Shown: positions 7,284 to 21,080 of the stretch, in pieces
How positions within the stretch are numbered: position 1 is the stretch's first letter
Layout of the letters: each line of letters begins with the position of its first letter
Source: Sulfurimonadaceae bacterium
Lineage (GTDB): Bacteria; Campylobacterota; Campylobacteria; Campylobacterales; Sulfurimonadaceae
Assembly (NCBI GenBank): GCA_041571435.1
Contig: JBFFUI010000008.1
Coordinates: forward strand, 4,581 to 68,580
Reading direction: 5' to 3'
Length of the DNA: 64,000 bases
Program-made: the position numbers and the translations under genes
The notes under the pieces: generated by a model
Told to the model about the DNA's origin: nothing
The model's input: only the letters and a program-made list of their open reading frames with translations
Databases searched by the model: none

Positions 7284-8405
7284 TTGTCTGAAATAACGCT
7301 TATCTTGTTAGCTGCTGGGAGTTCCAGTCGCTTTGGACTGCCTGTTAAGAAGCAGTGGCTCCGTATAGACCATGATCCCTTGTGGCTATTTGTCGCAAAT
7401 CAATTCCAACAAACTGCGTTATTTAGTAACATCATCGTCACTGCACATAAAGAAGAGGTGCCTTTTATGGAAGGGTTCTGCGACTATAAAGTCGTAGAAG
7501 GCGGTGAGACACGTCAGCAGTCACTGAAGAATGCACTTGAAACGGTCACGACGCCCTATGTGCTTGTCAGTGATATCGCTCGCGCCTGTATCGACAAAGC
7601 GTTGATAGAGACGCTGATCGATGCCAAAAAAGTTGCCGATGTGCTTGTTCCGGCTCTGAGTGTGCAAGACACCGTCGTCTATGACAGCAGTACCATTGAC
7701 CGCGATCTTGTCAAACGCATTCAGACACCGCAGCTCTCAAAGACAGCCGTCTTGAAAAAAGCGCTTCAGACCGATACCGAGTTCACGGATGAAAGTTCGG
7801 CTGTTATAGCGAACGGCGGGTCACGCTACTTCATCGAGGGCTCCGAAGATGCCCACAAAATAACCTTCGCCCATGATCTGACAAAACTTCCGTGTATCAA
7901 AGCGCCCTCCTCTTCAACACTTGTCGGAAGCGGTTTTGATGTACACGCTTTTGAAGCCGGGCGAGAGATGGTGCTTGGCGGGGTCAAAATCGATACTGAT
8001 TATGGTTTTAAAGCCCACAGTGACGGCGATGTCGCTATTCATGCCCTTATTGATGCCCTGTTAGGCGCCGCCGGACTGGGCGACATCGGCATGCTCTTTC
8101 CGGACAGTGACGACACCTACAAAGGCATCGATTCAAAAGAGCTTCTCCGTACGACCGTGCTTCGACTACACCAGTTTGGGCTTATTGTGGTCAATGCTGA
8201 CATTACCATCGCCGCAGAGGCACCTAAACTCAGTAAATATAAAAACGAGATGCGAACAACCTTGGCGCAGATTTTGCAGGTACCGACTTCGCGTATGAAT
8301 GTCAAAGCGACAACAACAGAAAAACTTGGCTTTATAGGCCGTAAAGAAGGCGTCGGCGTTATGGCCAGCGCGACATTAAACTACTATGATTGGACACAGA
8401 AATAA
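7284..8405 (+). CDS. ispDF: bifunctional IspD/IspF
   Basis: N-terminal LAAGSSSRF..KQ cytidylyltransferase motif; C-terminal GFDVHAF, HSDGDVAIHA, KATTTE motifs. Confidence 0.97.
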   Translation: MSEITLILLAAGSSSRFGLPVKKQWLRIDHDPLWLFVANQFQQTALFSNIIVTAHKEEVPFMEGFCDYKVVEGGETRQQSLKNALETVTTPYVLVSDIARACIDKALIETLIDAKKVADVLVPALSVQDTVVYDSSTIDRDLVKRIQTPQLSKTAVLKKALQTDTEFTDESSAVIANGGSRYFIEGSEDAHKITFAHDLTKLPCIKAPSSSTLVGSGFDVHAFEAGREMVLGGVKIDTDYGFKAHSDGDVAIHALIDALLGAAGLGDIGMLFPDSDDTYKGIDSKELLRTTVLRLHQFGLIVVNADITIAAEAPKLSKYKNEMRTTLAQILQVPTSRMNVKATTTEKLGFIGRKEGVGVMASATLNYYDWTQK

Positions 8406-9296
8406 ATGCGTATATTAATTATTGAAAATGAGATCTATTTGGCACAGAGTATCGCTGCAAAACTGAGCGAACTGGGTCACACTTGCGACATGAGTTCATC
8501 GACGCAAGACGCACTTAAGCGTATCCCTTACGATGTCATTCTCCTTTCAACAAACATCAATGACCAGGACATCTACCCTGTCATCGATGCCTATAAAGAT
8601 GCCGTTGTCATATTGATGGTCTCTTACATCTCCAATGACACTGTCTCGAAGCCGTTAAGTGCGGGTGCCAAAGATTACATCTTGAAGCCGTTTATGATCG
8701 AAGAGCTTATCCGCAAGATCGAACATTTCCAGGACTATGAGCGCCTTAAACGCCAGAATGCCACCTACCAGCGTTATCTAAAGCATGTTTTCAACGGCAT
8801 CAACATTGACGAAAACCTTGAAGATATTGAGGTCCCTATCTTTATCTCCAGCAACTTTCAAAAATACACCGATGCTTTTGCTTTCTCCTACGCTGAGATC
8901 CACAATAAGACTCTCCATTTCGTCTCACTGGCGAACAGCGACGCCTTCAGTGAGATCGAAAAACTTTCTGCAAGCACTTTGATCTACGCCAATGATTTTC
9001 AAGCCGTCAAAAAAGCGGATAAAAAAGCATTTTTTGAGCTGATCGAAGGGCGCGAAGCGATCATTTCAAGTACCGACAGTATCGATGAGGATATGGATTA
9101 CACTGTAGTTGAGATAAAAAGTGACAACAACGTCTTTGAACAGGGCGATATTCTCCCTATCGAAGACTATGTCAAATATATTGTGTTAAATTATCAACAC
9201 AAGTTCCCTGATACTGAGCTCTCCAAGAAGCTAGGGATATCTCGTAAAAGTCTCTGGGAGAAAAGAAAAAAATATGGCATCATCAAGAAAAAATAA
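8406..9296 (+). CDS. atypical response regulator (REC + Fis-type HTH)
   Basis: N-terminal receiver fold (ILIIEN...DYILKPF); C-terminal DTELSKKLGISRKSLWEK HTH. Confidence 0.8.
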   Translation: MRILIIENEIYLAQSIAAKLSELGHTCDMSSSTQDALKRIPYDVILLSTNINDQDIYPVIDAYKDAVVILMVSYISNDTVSKPLSAGAKDYILKPFMIEELIRKIEHFQDYERLKRQNATYQRYLKHVFNGINIDENLEDIEVPIFISSNFQKYTDAFAFSYAEIHNKTLHFVSLANSDAFSEIEKLSASTLIYANDFQAVKKADKKAFFELIEGREAIISSTDSIDEDMDYTVVEIKSDNNVFEQGDILPIEDYVKYIVLNYQHKFPDTELSKKLGISRKSLWEKRKKYGIIKKK

Positions 9297-10464
9297 CACC
9301 CTCTATATTGATCAGGAAGCCCTCTCCGCACTTGCTTTATTAAAAGCGGGTCTGCTCTACCCCGTCACCTCCCTAATGAACAAAAAGCAGACGATGGACG
9401 TCCTGGAGACAGGCACGTACAACAAGAAGATATTCCCTTTCCCTCTCATCCTGGCACCAAGCGGCAAGATAAACGAAGAGGTTCTAGCCGAGGCTGAGAC
9501 CGGTGACAGACTCACCCTTGTCTCTGAAGATGTGGAGGTCGGCCACCTTATCGTCGAAGAGGTCTTTGAGATCAACCCGAAAGAGCGTGTCCGCCAGATC
9601 TACGGAACAGACAACCTTGAACATCCCGGTGTCAAAGCGACCTATTCGAGGCTGGGTAATACGGCCGTTAGCGGTGATTTCGAGATCGACCTTTCGACGA
9701 TAACGCAGCGCAAAAAAGATATCGAAACAGCCAAACAGCGTATAGGCGCACAGCATGTCACCGCTATTATGATGGGGGCCAACCCTCTGCACCGTGCACA
9801 TGAACGACTTATCCGTCAGGCTTTGGATAAAACTGACCTTGTTGTCATCTTTTTACTAAAGCCCTTTAACAGTACCGATCTGCAGTTTGATCTGCGCAGC
9901 GAAACACTGACCTATTTTGTGCAGAACTTTTTACCGACAAACCGCGTTATCGTCGTACCATTGGAGAACAGCTACATCTTTGCCGGCTATAACGAAGTGA
10001 TCATCGATTCTATTGTTGCCAAAAACTTTGGGTGCAATCGCTTGACAATCGGTCAGAACCATGCCGGTGTCGGTATGTACTATGATCAGAATACAAACAA
10101 ATCGATCATTGACAAATTGACAGGACTCGACATTGAAGTCGATATCGCTTCTGAATATGTCTACTGCAATGTCTGCAAGACACTTGTCAGTACCAAAACC
10201 TGCCCGCATGGTCAGCACCACCATATCTCATATCATTCAGACTCTATCCTTGAACTCATCAAACTGGGTCTCTTGCCACCTGCGGTCTTGATGCGAAAAG
10301 AGATCGCAGCCATCATACTGTCACATCTCTTTCCGGATCGTTTTAAAAACCTTGAGAAGCTCTACTACGACATCATGCCGGTAACCGGTCTACTCGAAGA
10401 GCATACCGAGAAAGATTTTTATATAGAGTTGATGAAGCTCTATCAGACCACCTCTCTAACGTAA
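9274..10464 (+). CDS. ATP-sulfurylase (Sat)-like nucleotidyltransferase
   Basis: PUA-like N-terminus, NPLHRAHE, IGQNHAG, Cys cluster CNVC...CPH; several canonical residues differ. Confidence 0.8.
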   Translation: MASSRKNNTLYIDQEALSALALLKAGLLYPVTSLMNKKQTMDVLETGTYNKKIFPFPLILAPSGKINEEVLAEAETGDRLTLVSEDVEVGHLIVEEVFEINPKERVRQIYGTDNLEHPGVKATYSRLGNTAVSGDFEIDLSTITQRKKDIETAKQRIGAQHVTAIMMGANPLHRAHERLIRQALDKTDLVVIFLLKPFNSTDLQFDLRSETLTYFVQNFLPTNRVIVVPLENSYIFAGYNEVIIDSIVAKNFGCNRLTIGQNHAGVGMYYDQNTNKSIIDKLTGLDIEVDIASEYVYCNVCKTLVSTKTCPHGQHHHISYHSDSILELIKLGLLPPAVLMRKEIAAIILSHLFPDRFKNLEKLYYDIMPVTGLLEEHTEKDFYIELMKLYQTTSLT

Positions 10465-10528
10465 TTGCCGTCAAGAGAGCAGAAGCTGATTTTCACATAG
10501 TGAACTGCTTGCACCATAAAGGACAATA

Positions 10529-11044
10529 ATGAATTGGTTTTTTCTCACTGTATTTTACAGCGGTCTTGCACCTAAAGCTCCGGGAACCGTAGGGACCATA
10601 GTCGCACTGCCTATAGGGGTAGTGATCTTGGCCTACTTAGGTCCGCAGACACTTTTTTTAGCGGCATTGCTGTTGACGCTCGCCGGCGTTAAAGCGGTCA
10701 ACAAGTATCAGGAGAGCTCAAATACACACGATGACGGACGTATCGTAATCGATGAGCTGGTCGGAATGTGGTTGGCACTCTCTATAGCGCCGGGTATCTA
10801 TACACCGTTGGACGAACTGCTTGTACTTGAAAACGGTATGCTGATCCAAATCGTTTTAAGTTTTGGCCTATTTCGCTATTTTGACATCAAAAAGCCCTCT
10901 ATCATCGGCCGTATAGACCGTGAAGCACCGGGCGGCTACGGCGTAATGTTCGACGATGTCCTAGCAGGTATCGCAGCAGGTATACTAACGGCTATTATTT
11001 GGCAAGGTATTTTGGTCTCAGGCGTGATCGAGTATCTCAAATAA
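10529..11044 (+). CDS. pgpA: phosphatidylglycerophosphatase A
   Basis: PKAPGTVGT, IVIDELVG, FRYFDIKKP, GVMFDDVLAG. Confidence 0.95.
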   Translation: MNWFFLTVFYSGLAPKAPGTVGTIVALPIGVVILAYLGPQTLFLAALLLTLAGVKAVNKYQESSNTHDDGRIVIDELVGMWLALSIAPGIYTPLDELLVLENGMLIQIVLSFGLFRYFDIKKPSIIGRIDREAPGGYGVMFDDVLAGIAAGILTAIIWQGILVSGVIEYLK

Positions 11045-11081: not shown

Positions 11082-12416
11082 TTAGTTGGCCGCGTTTCCG
11101 GCCACGTTGAGCGGATCCCATGTTTTGGAGATCGGCGGGGCATAGCAAAAGTCCATCATCCCAAGCTCTTCCGTCGTCATCTTCGCTTTTATCGCCATAG
11201 CAATGACATCGATACGGAGTGCCGCACCTTTTTTGCCCAGGATCTCGCCCCCTACTATCACTCTGCTCTCTGCTTCATAGACAAGTTTGATGTAGATGTC
11301 TTGTTGATTCTTGTAGAACGCTGACTGATCTTTATCTTTGACAAAAACAGTCTTGCATGCCAGCCCCATCTTGGTGGCATCACTCTCATTGATCCCGGTA
11401 ATCGCTGCTTCCAAATCCATCACTTTAACACAGGCTGAGCCCAATGAGCCTGGGTACCATGCATGACCGCCGGCCATGTTCTCTCCCGCAACACGTCCGA
11501 GTTTGTTCGCACCGGTAGCCAGAGGAATGTAGACATCATCTTTTTTGACAATATGCGGTACAGTGGCACAATCGCCTGCGGCATAGACATCTTTTAGAGT
11601 TGTCTCGGCTCTCCCGTTAATGACAATAGCACCGTTTTCCAAGGTCTTGATACCCGTGTTTAAGACAAACTCCGTATTGGGTTTAAAGCCGGTAGCAATA
11701 ACGACCAAGTCTGTTTCATAATTGTTTTTATCCGTCACGACACGCTGCACTGTTGTCTCACCTTCAAAACCTTTTACACCTTCATTCAAGACCAGTTCAA
11801 CGTCGTGTCCAAGCAACTCTTCATGCATCATATCCGTTATGCGTTCATCAAATATACGGTTGAAGACACGCGGCCCCCTTTGGATCAAACGCACCTTTTT
11901 ACCCAGGTTTTTCATCGCTTCGACCACTTCGATCCCGATAAAACCGCCGCCGATAATAGTGACATCTTTTACCGTATCACTCTGTACAAGCGCTTTGAGT
12001 CTTTTACCGTCATCCAACTTGGTCAAGGTAAAAATATTTTCCAATCCTATATTATCAAAAGGCGGTTTAATGACATTTGCCCCTGTTGCGATCATCAATT
12101 TGTCGTAGTGGTGTGTCGTCACATTTGAACTGCGCAAATCTTTGACCTGCACCGTTTTATCGTCTGCTGATACCGAGAGGACCTGATGTGCTGTCTGTAC
12201 ATCGATACCCGCATCACGCATCTGTTCAACCGATCGCGCCAACATGGTATGTTCATCCTGAAAAAAATCACCTACATAATAGGGAAGACCGCAAGCCCCG
12301 AAAGAGACGATCTCACCCATCTCATAGACTGTTATCTCAGCATCTTTTGCAAATCGTCTCGCTTTTGCCGCTGCACTCATCCCTGCGGCGATACCGCCAA
12401 CAATAATAATTTTCAT
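11082..12416 (-). CDS. CoA-disulfide/persulfide reductase-NADH oxidase family flavoprotein
   Basis: GGIAAGMSAA, SFGACGLPY (single active-site Cys), GGGFIGIE, C-terminal YAPP; no rhodanese fusion. Confidence 0.88.
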   Translation of the reverse strand: MKIIIVGGIAAGMSAAAKARRFAKDAEITVYEMGEIVSFGACGLPYYVGDFFQDEHTMLARSVEQMRDAGIDVQTAHQVLSVSADDKTVQVKDLRSSNVTTHHYDKLMIATGANVIKPPFDNIGLENIFTLTKLDDGKRLKALVQSDTVKDVTIIGGGFIGIEVVEAMKNLGKKVRLIQRGPRVFNRIFDERITDMMHEELLGHDVELVLNEGVKGFEGETTVQRVVTDKNNYETDLVVIATGFKPNTEFVLNTGIKTLENGAIVINGRAETTLKDVYAAGDCATVPHIVKKDDVYIPLATGANKLGRVAGENMAGGHAWYPGSLGSACVKVMDLEAAITGINESDATKMGLACKTVFVKDKDQSAFYKNQQDIYIKLVYEAESRVIVGGEILGKKGAALRIDVIAMAIKAKMTTEELGMMDFCYAPPISKTWDPLNVAGNAAN

Positions 12417-12858: not shown

Positions 12859-13004
12859 AAACGTAATCTTAGCAAAAAAAAGTGCATTTGGCTAGAGGTA
12901 AAGGAAAATTTGTGCTAATTTTTGCTAATGATGCCAGAAATATGAGACTCAGACATCTATAATTACTTCTAATAATAGCTGTTTGTCTGAAAAAAGGATG
13001 ATGA

Positions 13005-13517
13005 TCAGATCATCATCGGATCAAAAGTCGGCTCGATCTCTTCGTAGTCTGCAACAATCTGGTCAAACATTTTCTGTGTCTTTTTGGCCTTCGCAATCTG
13101 GGCGTCAAAAATCTTTCTCGATGACGGGAACGCGTCAGCTAGTTCCGTATAGATCATTATACGCCCGTTAAGGTGCTTGTTGAATTCTGTAAATGCTTTA
13201 CTGAGAAATTCACGTTTTGTCGTATGACGGAAAAGCGCTTTGAGCATCTTGTCGCGCTCTTTAATAGGGATCGACTCGTCGATGCCGTCAGCAACACGTT
13301 TAAGATCGATACGTGAAAGATAGACACCGCTCTGACTCGGTGCAAGCAGCTTCTCCTGCAGTTCATCTACAAAAGCCGGATACGGCTCTTCATCGACTGC
13401 ATCACCACGGTCCGGGTTCTCTTCAGTGTCACAGCTTCCGTCTTCACTGATCTCACATTTGTCGCGTACAAACTTGTCAAATTCTGCTCTTAGTTCGTCC
13501 ATGTTGCCATTGATCAT
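13005..13517 (-). CDS. hypothetical acidic protein, last gene of molybdoenzyme cluster
   Basis: AGGA SD, 12-nt gap from the upstream gene, host-like codon usage. Confidence 0.8.
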   Translation of the reverse strand: MINGNMDELRAEFDKFVRDKCEISEDGSCDTEENPDRGDAVDEEPYPAFVDELQEKLLAPSQSGVYLSRIDLKRVADGIDESIPIKERDKMLKALFRHTTKREFLSKAFTEFNKHLNGRIMIYTELADAFPSSRKIFDAQIAKAKKTQKMFDQIVADYEEIEPTFDPMMI

Positions 13518-13529
13518 TATTATTTCCTT

Positions 13530-14288
13530 CTAATTATTTTTTATAAAATTGTAAGCGTTTTTTGTCAAACGCTCCAGTTGTGCCTCATAGCCTATATATT
13601 CGACATCGAGTTCATTCGCACGCTGACGAAGTGCAGAGATCTGCTTCGCATTTTTAAGGTCAATACAAATTGGCGGCAGCTTTGCCACCTTTGCCAATGA
13701 GCTGATCGTCGAGGCGTCAATAACAGCGTCATAGTCACTCAGATCGCATGCATCTGTCAAACGGTTGATATCGATCGATACACTCTCATTCATGGCCATC
13801 AATGACTCGACATATTCATGATAATAGAAAAGAGTATGCTCTCTCTGTGTCAATGCTATCGCCTTTGCCAATGCCCCTGCACCGATTACAGCGATCTTTC
13901 TCGCCTGTTTTTCATCAAGCAGTTCAAAAAGAGATTGTATCGCAATAAAATCGCCGATAAGCTTTTTATCTTTCACTAAAACCACATCACATGCGCCGCA
14001 CGCTTTGGAAAGTTCACTTTGAATGTCTACGATCTCAGCGGCATCTTTTTGATACTCGGCGCCGATGAAAGCACCGCTTAACTGAGCATCACGCATGTTG
14101 GAGAGTGTAAAGTAGAAATCGTCTTCGCGAATGTTCATCGGGATCATCATCGCATCATCACCCGCAGCTTTGAAAAGACGGTTTACACTCACGGACAGAC
14201 GGTTTTGCTGCGCCTCTTCGGCAATAAAACCGAACAGTTTGGTCTGACGGCCGATCTGGTTGGATTCGTTCATACTGTCAACACTCAT
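13530..14288 (-). CDS. shikimate dehydrogenase-fold protein, catalytically degenerate
   Basis: TKLFGFIA start, GAC, LIGD and IGAGALAKA motifs align with AroE, but the catalytic Lys and Asp are substituted. Confidence 0.75.
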   Translation of the reverse strand: MSVDSMNESNQIGRQTKLFGFIAEEAQQNRLSVSVNRLFKAAGDDAMMIPMNIREDDFYFTLSNMRDAQLSGAFIGAEYQKDAAEIVDIQSELSKACGACDVVLVKDKKLIGDFIAIQSLFELLDEKQARKIAVIGAGALAKAIALTQREHTLFYYHEYVESLMAMNESVSIDINRLTDACDLSDYDAVIDASTISSLAKVAKLPPICIDLKNAKQISALRQRANELDVEYIGYEAQLERLTKNAYNFIKNN

Positions 14289-19533: not shown

Positions 19534-20442
19534 TTAACTCATAGGTAGTAGTTGTGGAATCATCAACCATACATGTTTGACAATCCATAGACCAGCTAAC
19601 GCAAGGATAGCTGCTAATTTAAGAATGTTTTGGTTTTTGTTGACAATACTTAAGACCACTAGTACAAATGGAATGATGTAAGCAGTAACTTGACCGATCC
19701 AGAACATTGCCTGATACTCACCACCATGTTTGATGTACTCAAGTACAGCTGCAACCTCTTCAGCTTTCATCGGTCCGAAAACCAACTCCGCCATATACAT
19801 AATGAATGCCGCAAGTGCACTGAACCCGAGGATGATGCTCAGGTCACGTTTCGCTTCTGATGACAGCTTGTTCATGAACGTGTCCATCAAAAGAACCGTA
19901 GCTGAACCCGAAAGCGTCGCTGCAAGTACCATCTGGGCCGACTCTGTCGGCATCTGCCATAGTTCACGTGCCGTTGCCTGTGCCATAAGACCTGCCGTAT
20001 AAAGTGTTACAGGAATTGCAAGTACAGTTACCCATAGCAGTGTCTTGTCAAAGGCTGCATCGTCTTTTTTGATGAACGAAAGATAGGCAAGCAGGAACAA
20101 TAGAGCGACAAACGCCGTCGCCATCCAAGCACCCACCGTAATCGCCGATGTAACATGCGGATAGAAGAAAATGTGCCACATTCTAAACGGCTGATGAAGG
20201 TCCGCCAGAGTGAACAACAGGAACAGGTGAATAAATACAATTGATACGACTGTAATCGGGAAACGGTAGCCGGCTGATTCATTCGGGTACTTTTTCAACA
20301 GGTAGAACAGCATAAAGATAACACCTGTACCAATACTTTTAGCCCACATATTCATCGTAACCAGCCAAGGCCATACAATACCAGGAAGACCAACGTCCAA
20401 TGTCACAACTGCATTAGTTGCTGCGATAGTTTCGTGTACCAT
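19534..20442 (-). CDS. NrfD/PsrC family membrane anchor (quinol-interacting)
   Basis: About 8 hydrophobic helices; DLHQPFRMW and SAITVGAW motifs. Confidence 0.92.
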   Translation of the reverse strand: MVHETIAATNAVVTLDVGLPGIVWPWLVTMNMWAKSIGTGVIFMLFYLLKKYPNESAGYRFPITVVSIVFIHLFLLFTLADLHQPFRMWHIFFYPHVTSAITVGAWMATAFVALLFLLAYLSFIKKDDAAFDKTLLWVTVLAIPVTLYTAGLMAQATARELWQMPTESAQMVLAATLSGSATVLLMDTFMNKLSSEAKRDLSIILGFSALAAFIMYMAELVFGPMKAEEVAAVLEYIKHGGEYQAMFWIGQVTAYIIPFVLVVLSIVNKNQNILKLAAILALAGLWIVKHVWLMIPQLLPMS

Positions 20443-21080
20443 TAGTGACCTCCTAGCGGCATTTTTGAAGTAATCTTGTTAAACAACGAGTGTCCTTCTA
20501 CCCTGTGTGACGCAAGTGGGTTCAATGTAACGTTTCCGCCACCGACATAGTAGTGGTGCGGGTTCGTACCTTTTTCAGGTTTACGAACCTGAACATCACC
20601 TTGGTGCTGCATGATATACTTGGAGATGTTTGAAGTAGGGTCTTCAATATCACCGAAGATATTCGCTTCGACCGGACATGCGACAACACATGCAGGCATC
20701 ATCGAAGAGGCAATACGGTGTGCACAGTATGTACATTTGTCGGCCGTCTGTGTTTCCGGATCGATATAGATCGCGCCATATGGACAAGCCATAACACAAC
20801 CCGCACAACCGATACAACGTTCTTTGTCAATATTGACAATACCGTTTTCGATATAGTGAAGTGCACTGACCGGACAAATACGTTCACACGGTGCATTTTC
20901 ACAGTGGTTACAACGAAGTGGTGTAAATGTACGTTTCGTTTCCGGGAACGTACCTACATCAACATACTTAACACGAAGACGCCATGTAGAAAGAGGAACT
21001 TCATTCTCAACCTTACATGCGATCTCACATCCCTTACAACCCATACACAGGTGTAAGTCAACGAGGAAACCTAATTTCAT
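20442..21080 (-). CDS. four-cluster 4Fe-4S electron transfer subunit (PsrB/DmsB-like)
   Basis: CMGCKGCEIAC, CNHCENAPCERICP, CIGCAGCVMACP, KCTYC...PACVVACP. Confidence 0.95.
   Translation of the reverse strand: MKLGFLVDLHLCMGCKGCEIACKVENEVPLSTWRLRVKYVDVGTFPETKRTFTPLRCNHCENAPCERICPVSALHYIENGIVNIDKERCIGCAGCVMACPYGAIYIDPETQTADKCTYCAHRIASSMMPACVVACPVEANIFGDIEDPTSNISKYIMQHQGDVQVRKPEKGTNPHHYYVGGGNVTLNPLASHRVEGHSLFNKITSKMPLGGH

Follow-up and report, generated by a model that had tools for sequence, protein, structure and literature searches.

The window analyzed here is a 64,000-nucleotide stretch of contig JBFFUI010000008.1 from a Sulfurimonadaceae bacterium (assembly GCA_041571435.1, positions 4,581 to 68,580). 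At positions 13530–14288 of its minus strand lies an open reading frame whose translation, a protein of 252 amino acids (aa; P0001), has a predicted shikimate dehydrogenase (SDH) fold and is encoded in the operon of a molybdoenzyme. With moderate confidence, we propose that this SDH-like protein is a dedicated, non-catalytic accessory, derived from AroE, of a Campylobacterales-specific, Psr/Ttr-like molybdoenzyme that is exported via the twin-arginine translocation (Tat) pathway, and that it works together with a polyferredoxin, likely in the maturation of the enzyme, by a mechanism that we infer below. The SDH-like proteins make up a previously undescribed family of pseudoenzymes that derive from AroE, span the order and are linked to a single molybdoenzyme and its polyferredoxin; a literature search yielded no mention of an SDH-like gene in these operons.

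Fold and active-site residues of the SDH-like protein

The original prediction, made from the DNA sequence, held that the gene encodes a pseudoenzyme with an SDH fold. The similarity to Pfam Shikimate_dh_N (PF08501) reflects real homology, but the score of 23.1 bits remains below the cut-off of 27; indeed, the protein scores under all curated family cut-offs tested (46.7 bits versus 252 for the best NCBIfam aroE model, and 40.9 versus 200 for TIGR00507). A phmmer search of the PDB retrieves the Aquifex SDH (2hk9) with E=2.6e-7, and a profile of the family, derived from 96 aligned sequences, reaches E=6.6e-11. The AlphaFold model built on the same alignment is confident (pLDDT 93.2, pTM 0.87), and the top 50 Foldseek matches of this model in the PDB are all structures of the SDH/AroE family (E down to 1.7e-16, TM 0.63–0.78), the best of them 5-ketofructose reductase (7col). 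The predicted fold is thus borne out by the model and the match list, and the protein is modelled with the full two-domain SDH architecture. It comprises the former shikimate-binding, N-terminal domain (residues 1–125; positions 13914–14288, minus strand, as are all parts of the gene), which is the conserved core of the family; a Rossmann-like domain that contains the IGAGALAKA loop and is dispensable in many lineages (residues 126–232; 13593–13913); and a C-terminal helix (residues 233–252; 13533–13592; spanning residues 234–251 in the model) that packs back on the N-terminal domain and is kept in orthologues consisting of that domain only.

All the motif strings on which the original prediction relied are present in the protein, namely GAFIGAEYQ (residues 72–80), GACDV (98–102), IGDFIAI (111–117) and IGAGALAKA (135–143), and most of the proposed replacements hold in the phmmer and family-profile alignments to SDHs from the PDB. 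The catalytic Lys (K65 in E. coli) aligns with Q80, a position that in the 96 relatives is occupied by Gln (74), Val (15), Leu, Arg and Thr (2 each) or Met (1), and never by Lys. The Thr of the NVT motif (E. coli T61) aligns with G76, such that the Asn/Thr pair of this motif is replaced by F74/G76; the Asn of GAxNT (E. coli N86) aligns with D101; and the substrate-binding serines of HSxSP are lost, with N29 and L31 in their places. For the catalytic Asp (E. coli D102), the proposed replacement by A116 agrees with some of the evidence only. The ungapped MAFFT alignment to the AroE of the same genome (KLIGYNTDADGF versus KLIGDFIAIQSL) places this Asp at A116, in accord with the secondary structure of the model, in which a strand spans residues 109–113 and a helix starts at 116, but HMMER introduces a three-residue gap and pairs the Asp with D113. 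Neither candidate column is conserved among the 96 sequences (Asp in 67, Glu in 23 and other residues in 6 at position 113; Ala in 41, Leu in 19, Ser in 17 and others at position 116). Most likely, judging from the alignments and the model, the catalytic Asp has been replaced by A116.

A separate, canonical aroE gene, the presence of which had been left to be checked, is located on another contig of the same genome (G000:C11); its 263-aa product scores 86.7 bits and has intact NVTVPHK, VVNT and YNTD motifs. The possibility that the SDH-like gene is the only aroE in the genome is accordingly rejected. Given the residues at its former active site, the SDH-like protein cannot be a shikimate dehydrogenase, and the notion of a pseudoenzyme, an SDH fold with the catalytic and substrate-binding residues lost, is upheld.

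The conserved N-terminal domain and the optional Rossmann domain

We identified 676 homologues of the SDH-like protein in a collection of 5.8 billion proteins, and all those with a named source come from Sulfurimonadaceae or Campylobacterota. These homologues are annotated as 'hypothetical protein' or, by JGI, as 'shikimate 5-dehydrogenase'; in JGI/IMG, the latter label is also attached to 157-aa forms that consist of the N-terminal domain only, a misannotation that is propagating. An exhaustive HMMER search over 1.84 billion cluster representatives yields only about 50 matches with E<1e-10, and the weaker matches grade into ordinary SDHs.

The family alignment of 96 sequences contains 24 invariant columns, and most of the strongest of these belong to the N-terminal domain. 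The family signature, I-P-M-N-I-R-x-D-D-x-x-F-T, occupies residues 49–61, and its first part, IPMNIREDD in the window protein (residues 49–57; positions 14118–14144, minus strand), is located on the beta2-alpha2 loop; P50, M51, N52, R54, D56 and D57 are unchanged in 96 of the 96 sequences. Together with residues outside the signature, the invariant polar and acidic set includes N52, R54, D56, D57, T61, N64, E78 and D101, and C100 is present in 95 of the 96 sequences. The motif NI[RK]x[DE][DEH]F persists even in the most distant and the truncated members of the family. When distant members are included in the alignment, C100 is Cys in 13 of 27 sequences and Val, Ile or Phe in the other 14. By analogy with the topology of SDHs, the invariant residues would line the former substrate cleft.

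The gene is under purifying selection, with a ratio of nonsynonymous to synonymous substitution rates (dN/dS) of about 0.07–0.12. The selection is weaker on the Rossmann domain (mean pairwise identity 54%, dN/dS 0.12) than on the N-terminal domain (62.5%, dN/dS 0.065), these ratios being approximate given that dS is near saturation.

The nucleotide-binding loop of the Rossmann domain shows a different pattern of conservation. The original prediction correctly described an intact GxGxxA loop (IGAGALAKA) in the window protein; across the full-length relatives, the second Gly of this loop is kept in 57 of 96 sequences and lost in 39 (41%), which have variants such as IGATPLAGA and IGISPYAKA. All 96 have an acidic residue at the end of beta-2. 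Furthermore, in Sulfurovum (including strain NBC37-1), several genera of Sulfurimonadaceae and three further families, the gene in the same operon position encodes a protein of only 125–165 aa, in which the N-terminal domain is joined to the final helix and the nucleotide-binding domain is cleanly deleted. The Sulfurovum short form has more than 1000 homologues, from Campylobacterales where the source is named, and short forms are found in at least five other lineages. In a maximum-likelihood tree of the N-terminal domains the short forms are polyphyletic; the tree requires 7 changes by parsimony (7–8 across bootstrap replicates), of which at least 2 are forced by well-supported branches alone. 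We looked for a correlation of the loss of the Rossmann domain with changes in the 170-aa protein encoded in the same operon (p170) or with the subtype of the catalytic subunit A, and found none. The Rossmann domain is an optional appendage of the family. Because of the loss of the Gly in 41% of the full-length sequences and the repeated deletions of the entire domain, the conserved core of the family is the remodelled N-terminal domain rather than the NAD(P)-binding site. The same observations lead us to reject NAD(P)H sensing as the core function at the level of the family and lend no support to the carriage of a nucleotide as that function; here the original prediction, which offered such functions among its options, is not supported. 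The full-length forms may nevertheless contain an adenine-nucleotide site as an add-on.

Operon context and the likely role in enzyme maturation

The SDH-like gene is the sixth in a tightly packed operon of seven genes, all on the minus strand, and its ATG follows a GGAG ribosome-binding site at a distance of 5 nt. The three structural genes (B, C and A) encode a TtrB-like Fe-S subunit with four clusters (212 aa; 20442–21080; NCBIfam TtrB, 2.8e-61, below the cut-off of the model), a membrane quinol subunit of the NrfD/PsrC type (302 aa; 19534–20442; PF03916 at 1.4e-14) and the catalytic subunit A, a Psr/Phs/Ttr-like protein of the molybdenum-bis(pyranopterin guanine dinucleotide) (Mo-bisPGD) class (1139 aa, P0005; 16102–19521). 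The latter contains the Pfam Molybdopterin and Fe4S4 domains, a putative Cys232 ligand and an SRRTFLKG Tat motif visible in the translation. These are followed by the genes for a TorD/NarJ-family chaperone (209 aa, P0004; 15407–16036; PF02613, 2.7e-18; NCBIfam TorD, 2.6e-15), a cytoplasmic polyferredoxin (369 aa, P0003; 14298–15407), which adjoins the SDH-like gene on the upstream side, the SDH-like protein itself, and p170 (P0002; 13005–13517), an all-helical orphan protein that is the product of the last gene. A terminator-like hairpin with a T-run at the stop codon of the p170 gene (12997–13017, minus strand) marks the end of the operon. The polyferredoxin has Pfam Fer4 matches in four stretches, corresponding to four Fer4 motifs, and a C-terminal CxxC...CxxC arrangement; its matches in the PDB are the RnfB, FwdF and MvhB polyferredoxins. 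The stop and start codons around the SDH-like gene are spaced by 9–12 nt in this operon and overlap in relatives; such overlaps are frequent at the junction between the polyferredoxin and SDH-like genes.

This gene neighborhood was analyzed in 80 species loci recovered with the family motif and, separately, in a phylum-wide sample of 401 genomes. The TorD-like, polyferredoxin, SDH-like and p170 genes are contiguous in nearly all of the 80 loci, and the structural genes directly precede this cassette in only about 14 of them; of the genomes in which the cassette is detached, the 9 that were examined all carry an A orthologue elsewhere (68–92% identity). In the 401-genome sample, A orthologues (at least 60% identity) are found in 59 genomes from seven families, and, with four fragmented assemblies as exceptions, SDH-like matches of the family type are confined to families with an A orthologue. 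The order B-C-A-TorD-polyferredoxin-SDH-like-p170 is shared by 16 of 17 loci from 17 other Campylobacterales genomes, which represent other genera of Sulfurimonadaceae and about five further families, except that one of these 16 loci is cut by the end of its contig; the seventeenth is a Sulfurovaceae locus with no SDH-like gene (L109, described below). Even members of the SDH-like family with 23–30% identity are encoded in the order TorD/polyferredoxin/SDH-like, and altogether its place in the operon is preserved in about seven Campylobacterales families. The claim that the gene is part of the molybdoenzyme operon can therefore be extended: the SDH-like protein is encoded and co-inherited with one specific Mo-bisPGD enzyme.

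The constant of nearly all arrangements is the polyferredoxin gene followed by the SDH-like gene, the exception being one locus (L085) in which no polyferredoxin was detected. At least two types of split operons are observed in Sulfurimonas, one in which B, C and A are separated from the intact four-gene cassette, and another in which B, C, A, TorD and p170 stay together and the polyferredoxin and SDH-like genes are located elsewhere, as in Sulfurimonas indica NW8N (L113, G003:C51). The polyferredoxin and SDH-like genes are adjacent in all the split arrangements that were resolved. The two split types (exemplified by L076 and L113) suggest that TorD is functionally paired with p170, and the polyferredoxin with the SDH-like protein.

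The A subunit is 60–92% identical across the order in the sampled genomes and is far more conserved than the accessory proteins. It comes in two length classes, of about 1130–1146 aa (at least 77% identity) and about 1089–1142 aa (60–76%), with a variable segment around residues 952–996. Its best match in the PDB is PsrA of Thermus (2vpw, 3.9e-32), limited to residues 88–341. The A orthologue of Sulfurovum sp. NBC37-1 (L100:3821-4120) contains a clear ESRRSFLKG Tat motif and an active-site Cys near residue 251, and because of these features it is probably the gene product called PsrA in the literature, for which Cys-257 has been discussed (PMC10045233). According to the same paper, the PsrA proteins of Sulfurovum have no twin-arginine signals and are active in the cytoplasm (PMC10045233), a statement that may not be valid for this group or may result from mis-called start codons. 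The label 'PSRLC3' is not applicable to these enzymes because it is a term for Chlorobi. For p170, there is no Pfam or NCBIfam match, and its model (pLDDT 83) has no fold match in the PDB; the protein consists of an N-terminal helix, an acidic, Cys-containing linker and a core with the invariant SG[VI]Y.SR.D[IL]K motif, and it is a conserved member of the operon throughout, including where the SDH-like gene has disappeared.

In the explanation that we propose, the SDH-like protein has retained its two-domain fold, while the residues for shikimate binding and oxidation are gone. The N-terminus of the protein (MSVDSMNESNQIGRQTKLFG) shows no signal peptide or transmembrane segment by eye, in contrast to the SRRTFLKG motif of the A subunit, which points to a cytoplasmic location. 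There, the SDH-like protein would act with the polyferredoxin encoded upstream, probably in a complex, alongside the TorD-like chaperone and p170. The functional unit would be the remodelled N-terminal domain with its invariant residues, and the protein is probably an adaptor or a ligand-holding partner of the polyferredoxin rather than a dehydrogenase. Its most likely role would be in the maturation of the catalytic subunit prior to export, through loading of Fe-S clusters and/or Mo-bisPGD, or through quality control. We favor a cytoplasmic maturation role because no export signals are visible in the accessory proteins, whereas the enzyme is exported via Tat, because a TorD-type chaperone heads the accessory set, because the polyferredoxin is NapF-like in kind and because in many genomes the set is presumably transcribed separately from the structural genes. 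The idea that an SDH-fold pseudoenzyme was repurposed within a molybdoenzyme operon is thereby retained, though not with the NAD(P) site as the family function; among the options of the original prediction, 'assembly factor' comes closest to the role suggested here.

Several observations weigh against this explanation. In a Sulfurovaceae locus of the genus g45 (L109, G191:C9), the polyferredoxin gene is directly followed by that for p170, and a search for the SDH-like gene in the two other sampled g45 genomes produced no match; hence the SDH-like protein is not indispensable for a system of this kind. Also, the universal acidic residue at the end of beta-2 and the purifying selection on the Rossmann domain imply that nucleotide binding may matter where this domain exists. 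The genus g45 represents a natural knockout lineage for the SDH-like gene.

A more specific version of the maturation role is that the N-terminal domain, with its pocket of invariant Asn, Arg, Asp, Asp, Glu and Asp, is a ligand-holding module that, with the polyferredoxin, delivers or redox-conditions a cofactor, the candidates being Mo/W-bisPGD, its pterin (molybdopterin) and the FS0 cluster or, in a broader carrier scheme, also a guanine nucleotide and a divalent or Mo/W ion, to be handed over to the apo-form of this widespread sulfur-cycle molybdoenzyme. The new invariant polar and acidic set, which has taken the place of the shikimate ligands in loops along the C-terminal edge of the sheet in the N-terminal domain, and the retention of this domain alone in the truncated forms are compatible with such a carrier, but a protein-protein interface explains the conservation equally well, and C100 is replaced by Val, Ile or Phe in about half of the alignment that includes distant members. 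We regard this version as a tentative, minority possibility; if true, it would define a new class of molybdoenzyme maturation factors born from an enzyme of primary metabolism. The variant in which C100 carries a persulfide, by analogy with FdhD, was set aside because of the replacements of this residue in distant members. It is unlikely that the protein is an NAD(P)H redox sensor, in which the Rossmann domain would bind NAD(P)(H) and thereby let the cytoplasmic redox state control whether the enzyme is assembled or active. The glycine loop of the window protein, the acidic end of beta-2, as in NAD-type Rossmann folds, and the dN/dS of the Rossmann domain are all in line with this proposal, but the degeneration of the loop and the absence of the domain from Sulfurovum and at least five other lineages make such sensing, at best, a lineage-specific add-on.

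The constant pairing with a four-cluster polyferredoxin related to electron wires of the RnfB, FwdF and MvhB type also invites the suggestion that the polyferredoxin, the SDH-like protein and p170 form a cytoplasmic module which feeds or drains electrons for the respiratory complex. This is quite improbable given that the A and B subunits are exported via Tat, that the NrfD-type C subunit, like PsrC-type subunits in general, has no haem to take electrons across the membrane, that a flavin-binding domain through which NAD(P)H could be coupled to the Fe-S clusters is missing, and that the cassette is often, by its position, transcriptionally separate from the structural genes. Still harder to accept is a neofunctionalized enzyme with a new substrate and a different catalytic set. 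The strong purifying selection and the conserved polar pocket are compatible with catalysis, and SDH-family members with other substrates do exist, 5-ketofructose reductase among them, but as far as is known these enzymes have both the Lys/Asp dyad and the nucleotide site intact. In the present family Lys is never found and the cofactor domain has been repeatedly deleted, although an enzyme that transfers hydride cannot do without its NAD(P) domain. Finally, the loss of the catalytic residues, and of the whole gene in one genus that keeps the operon, might be taken as signs of a decaying, functionless aroE duplicate. The low dN/dS, the invariant columns, the good ribosome-binding site and the operon position held across about seven families speak against decay, and by virtue of these conservation data this reading is effectively refuted, with next to no probability left to it.

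A testable set of four accessory proteins is now defined for this molybdoenzyme, which is among the most conserved respiratory complexes in the sampled genomes of Sulfurimonas and Sulfurovum, bacteria that dominate sulfidic redoxclines and hydrothermal vents; heterologous expression of the enzyme will probably need the helper genes. In addition, the family presents a clean case in which an enzyme has turned into a pseudoenzyme and progressively lost a domain, and brings to light a systematic misannotation in JGI.

A CoA-disulfide reductase gene (11082–12416, minus strand; NCBIfam, 646 bits) is located just downstream of the operon in the window. The closest relative (L010) shares this arrangement and other genomes do not; in some organisms, members of this family are NAD(P)H sulfur reductases. 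The flanking genes on the plus strand (7284–11044), which encode IspDF, a response regulator, ATP sulfurylase and PgpA, are neighbors of the detached cassette in Sulfurimonas loci (L003 and L076). Because the same genes flank detached cassettes, the chromosomal site of the cassette is probably ancestral, and the position of B, C and A is the variable part.

Relationship to known systems

One parallel is offered by the Nap system, in which NapF and NapD are needed for the maturation of NapA but not for catalysis. In both systems, a cytoplasmic ferredoxin with multiple [4Fe-4S] clusters and a private chaperone are encoded together with a Tat-exported Mo-bisPGD enzyme, and the polyferredoxin of the window has a weak NCBIfam match to NapF (2.4e-10). 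By likeness to NapF and NapD, a maturation role is suggested for the accessory set described here, with the difference that the chaperone is of the TorD/NarJ rather than the NapD type; we know of no SDH-fold or p170-like partner in Nap systems. The SDH-like protein also resembles redox enzyme maturation proteins, such as TorD, DmsD and NarJ, in being a probably cytoplasmic helper that is specific to one system and shares an operon with a complex iron-sulfur molybdoenzyme, and a true TorD-family member is part of the same accessory set. However, its fold is unrelated to that of these chaperones and, to our knowledge, the known systems of this kind need a single chaperone only, whereas three further accessory proteins are conserved here.

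The enzyme itself is similar to PsrABC, PhsABC and TtrBCA, with the B-C-A gene order of ttr, the TtrB-like Fe-S subunit, the NrfD subunit and a putatively Cys-ligated A subunit near Thermus PsrA. Compared with PsrA and PhsA, this A subunit has about 350 additional residues, and its match to them is confined to the region aligned with the Thermus protein. We are not aware of any characterized Psr, Phs or Ttr operon with SDH-like or p170 genes.

With the AroE/SDH superfamily (YdiB, SdhL, Ael1, RifI and 5-ketofructose reductase), the SDH-like protein shares the predicted fold, that is, the N-terminal alpha/beta substrate domain, the Rossmann domain and the C-terminal helix, as well as several ancestral motifs, including N36 of SPxxHN, G72, D88, the GxG loop and D-x-x-x-[ND]-A-[TS]. 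In contrast to these enzymes, the family lacks the catalytic Lys and the substrate-binding Ser, Asn and Thr, does not conserve the Asp, possesses the invariant IPMNIRxDDxxFT signature and can dispense with the Rossmann domain, and its genes belong to the operon of a respiratory molybdoenzyme instead of accompanying those for aromatic amino acids.

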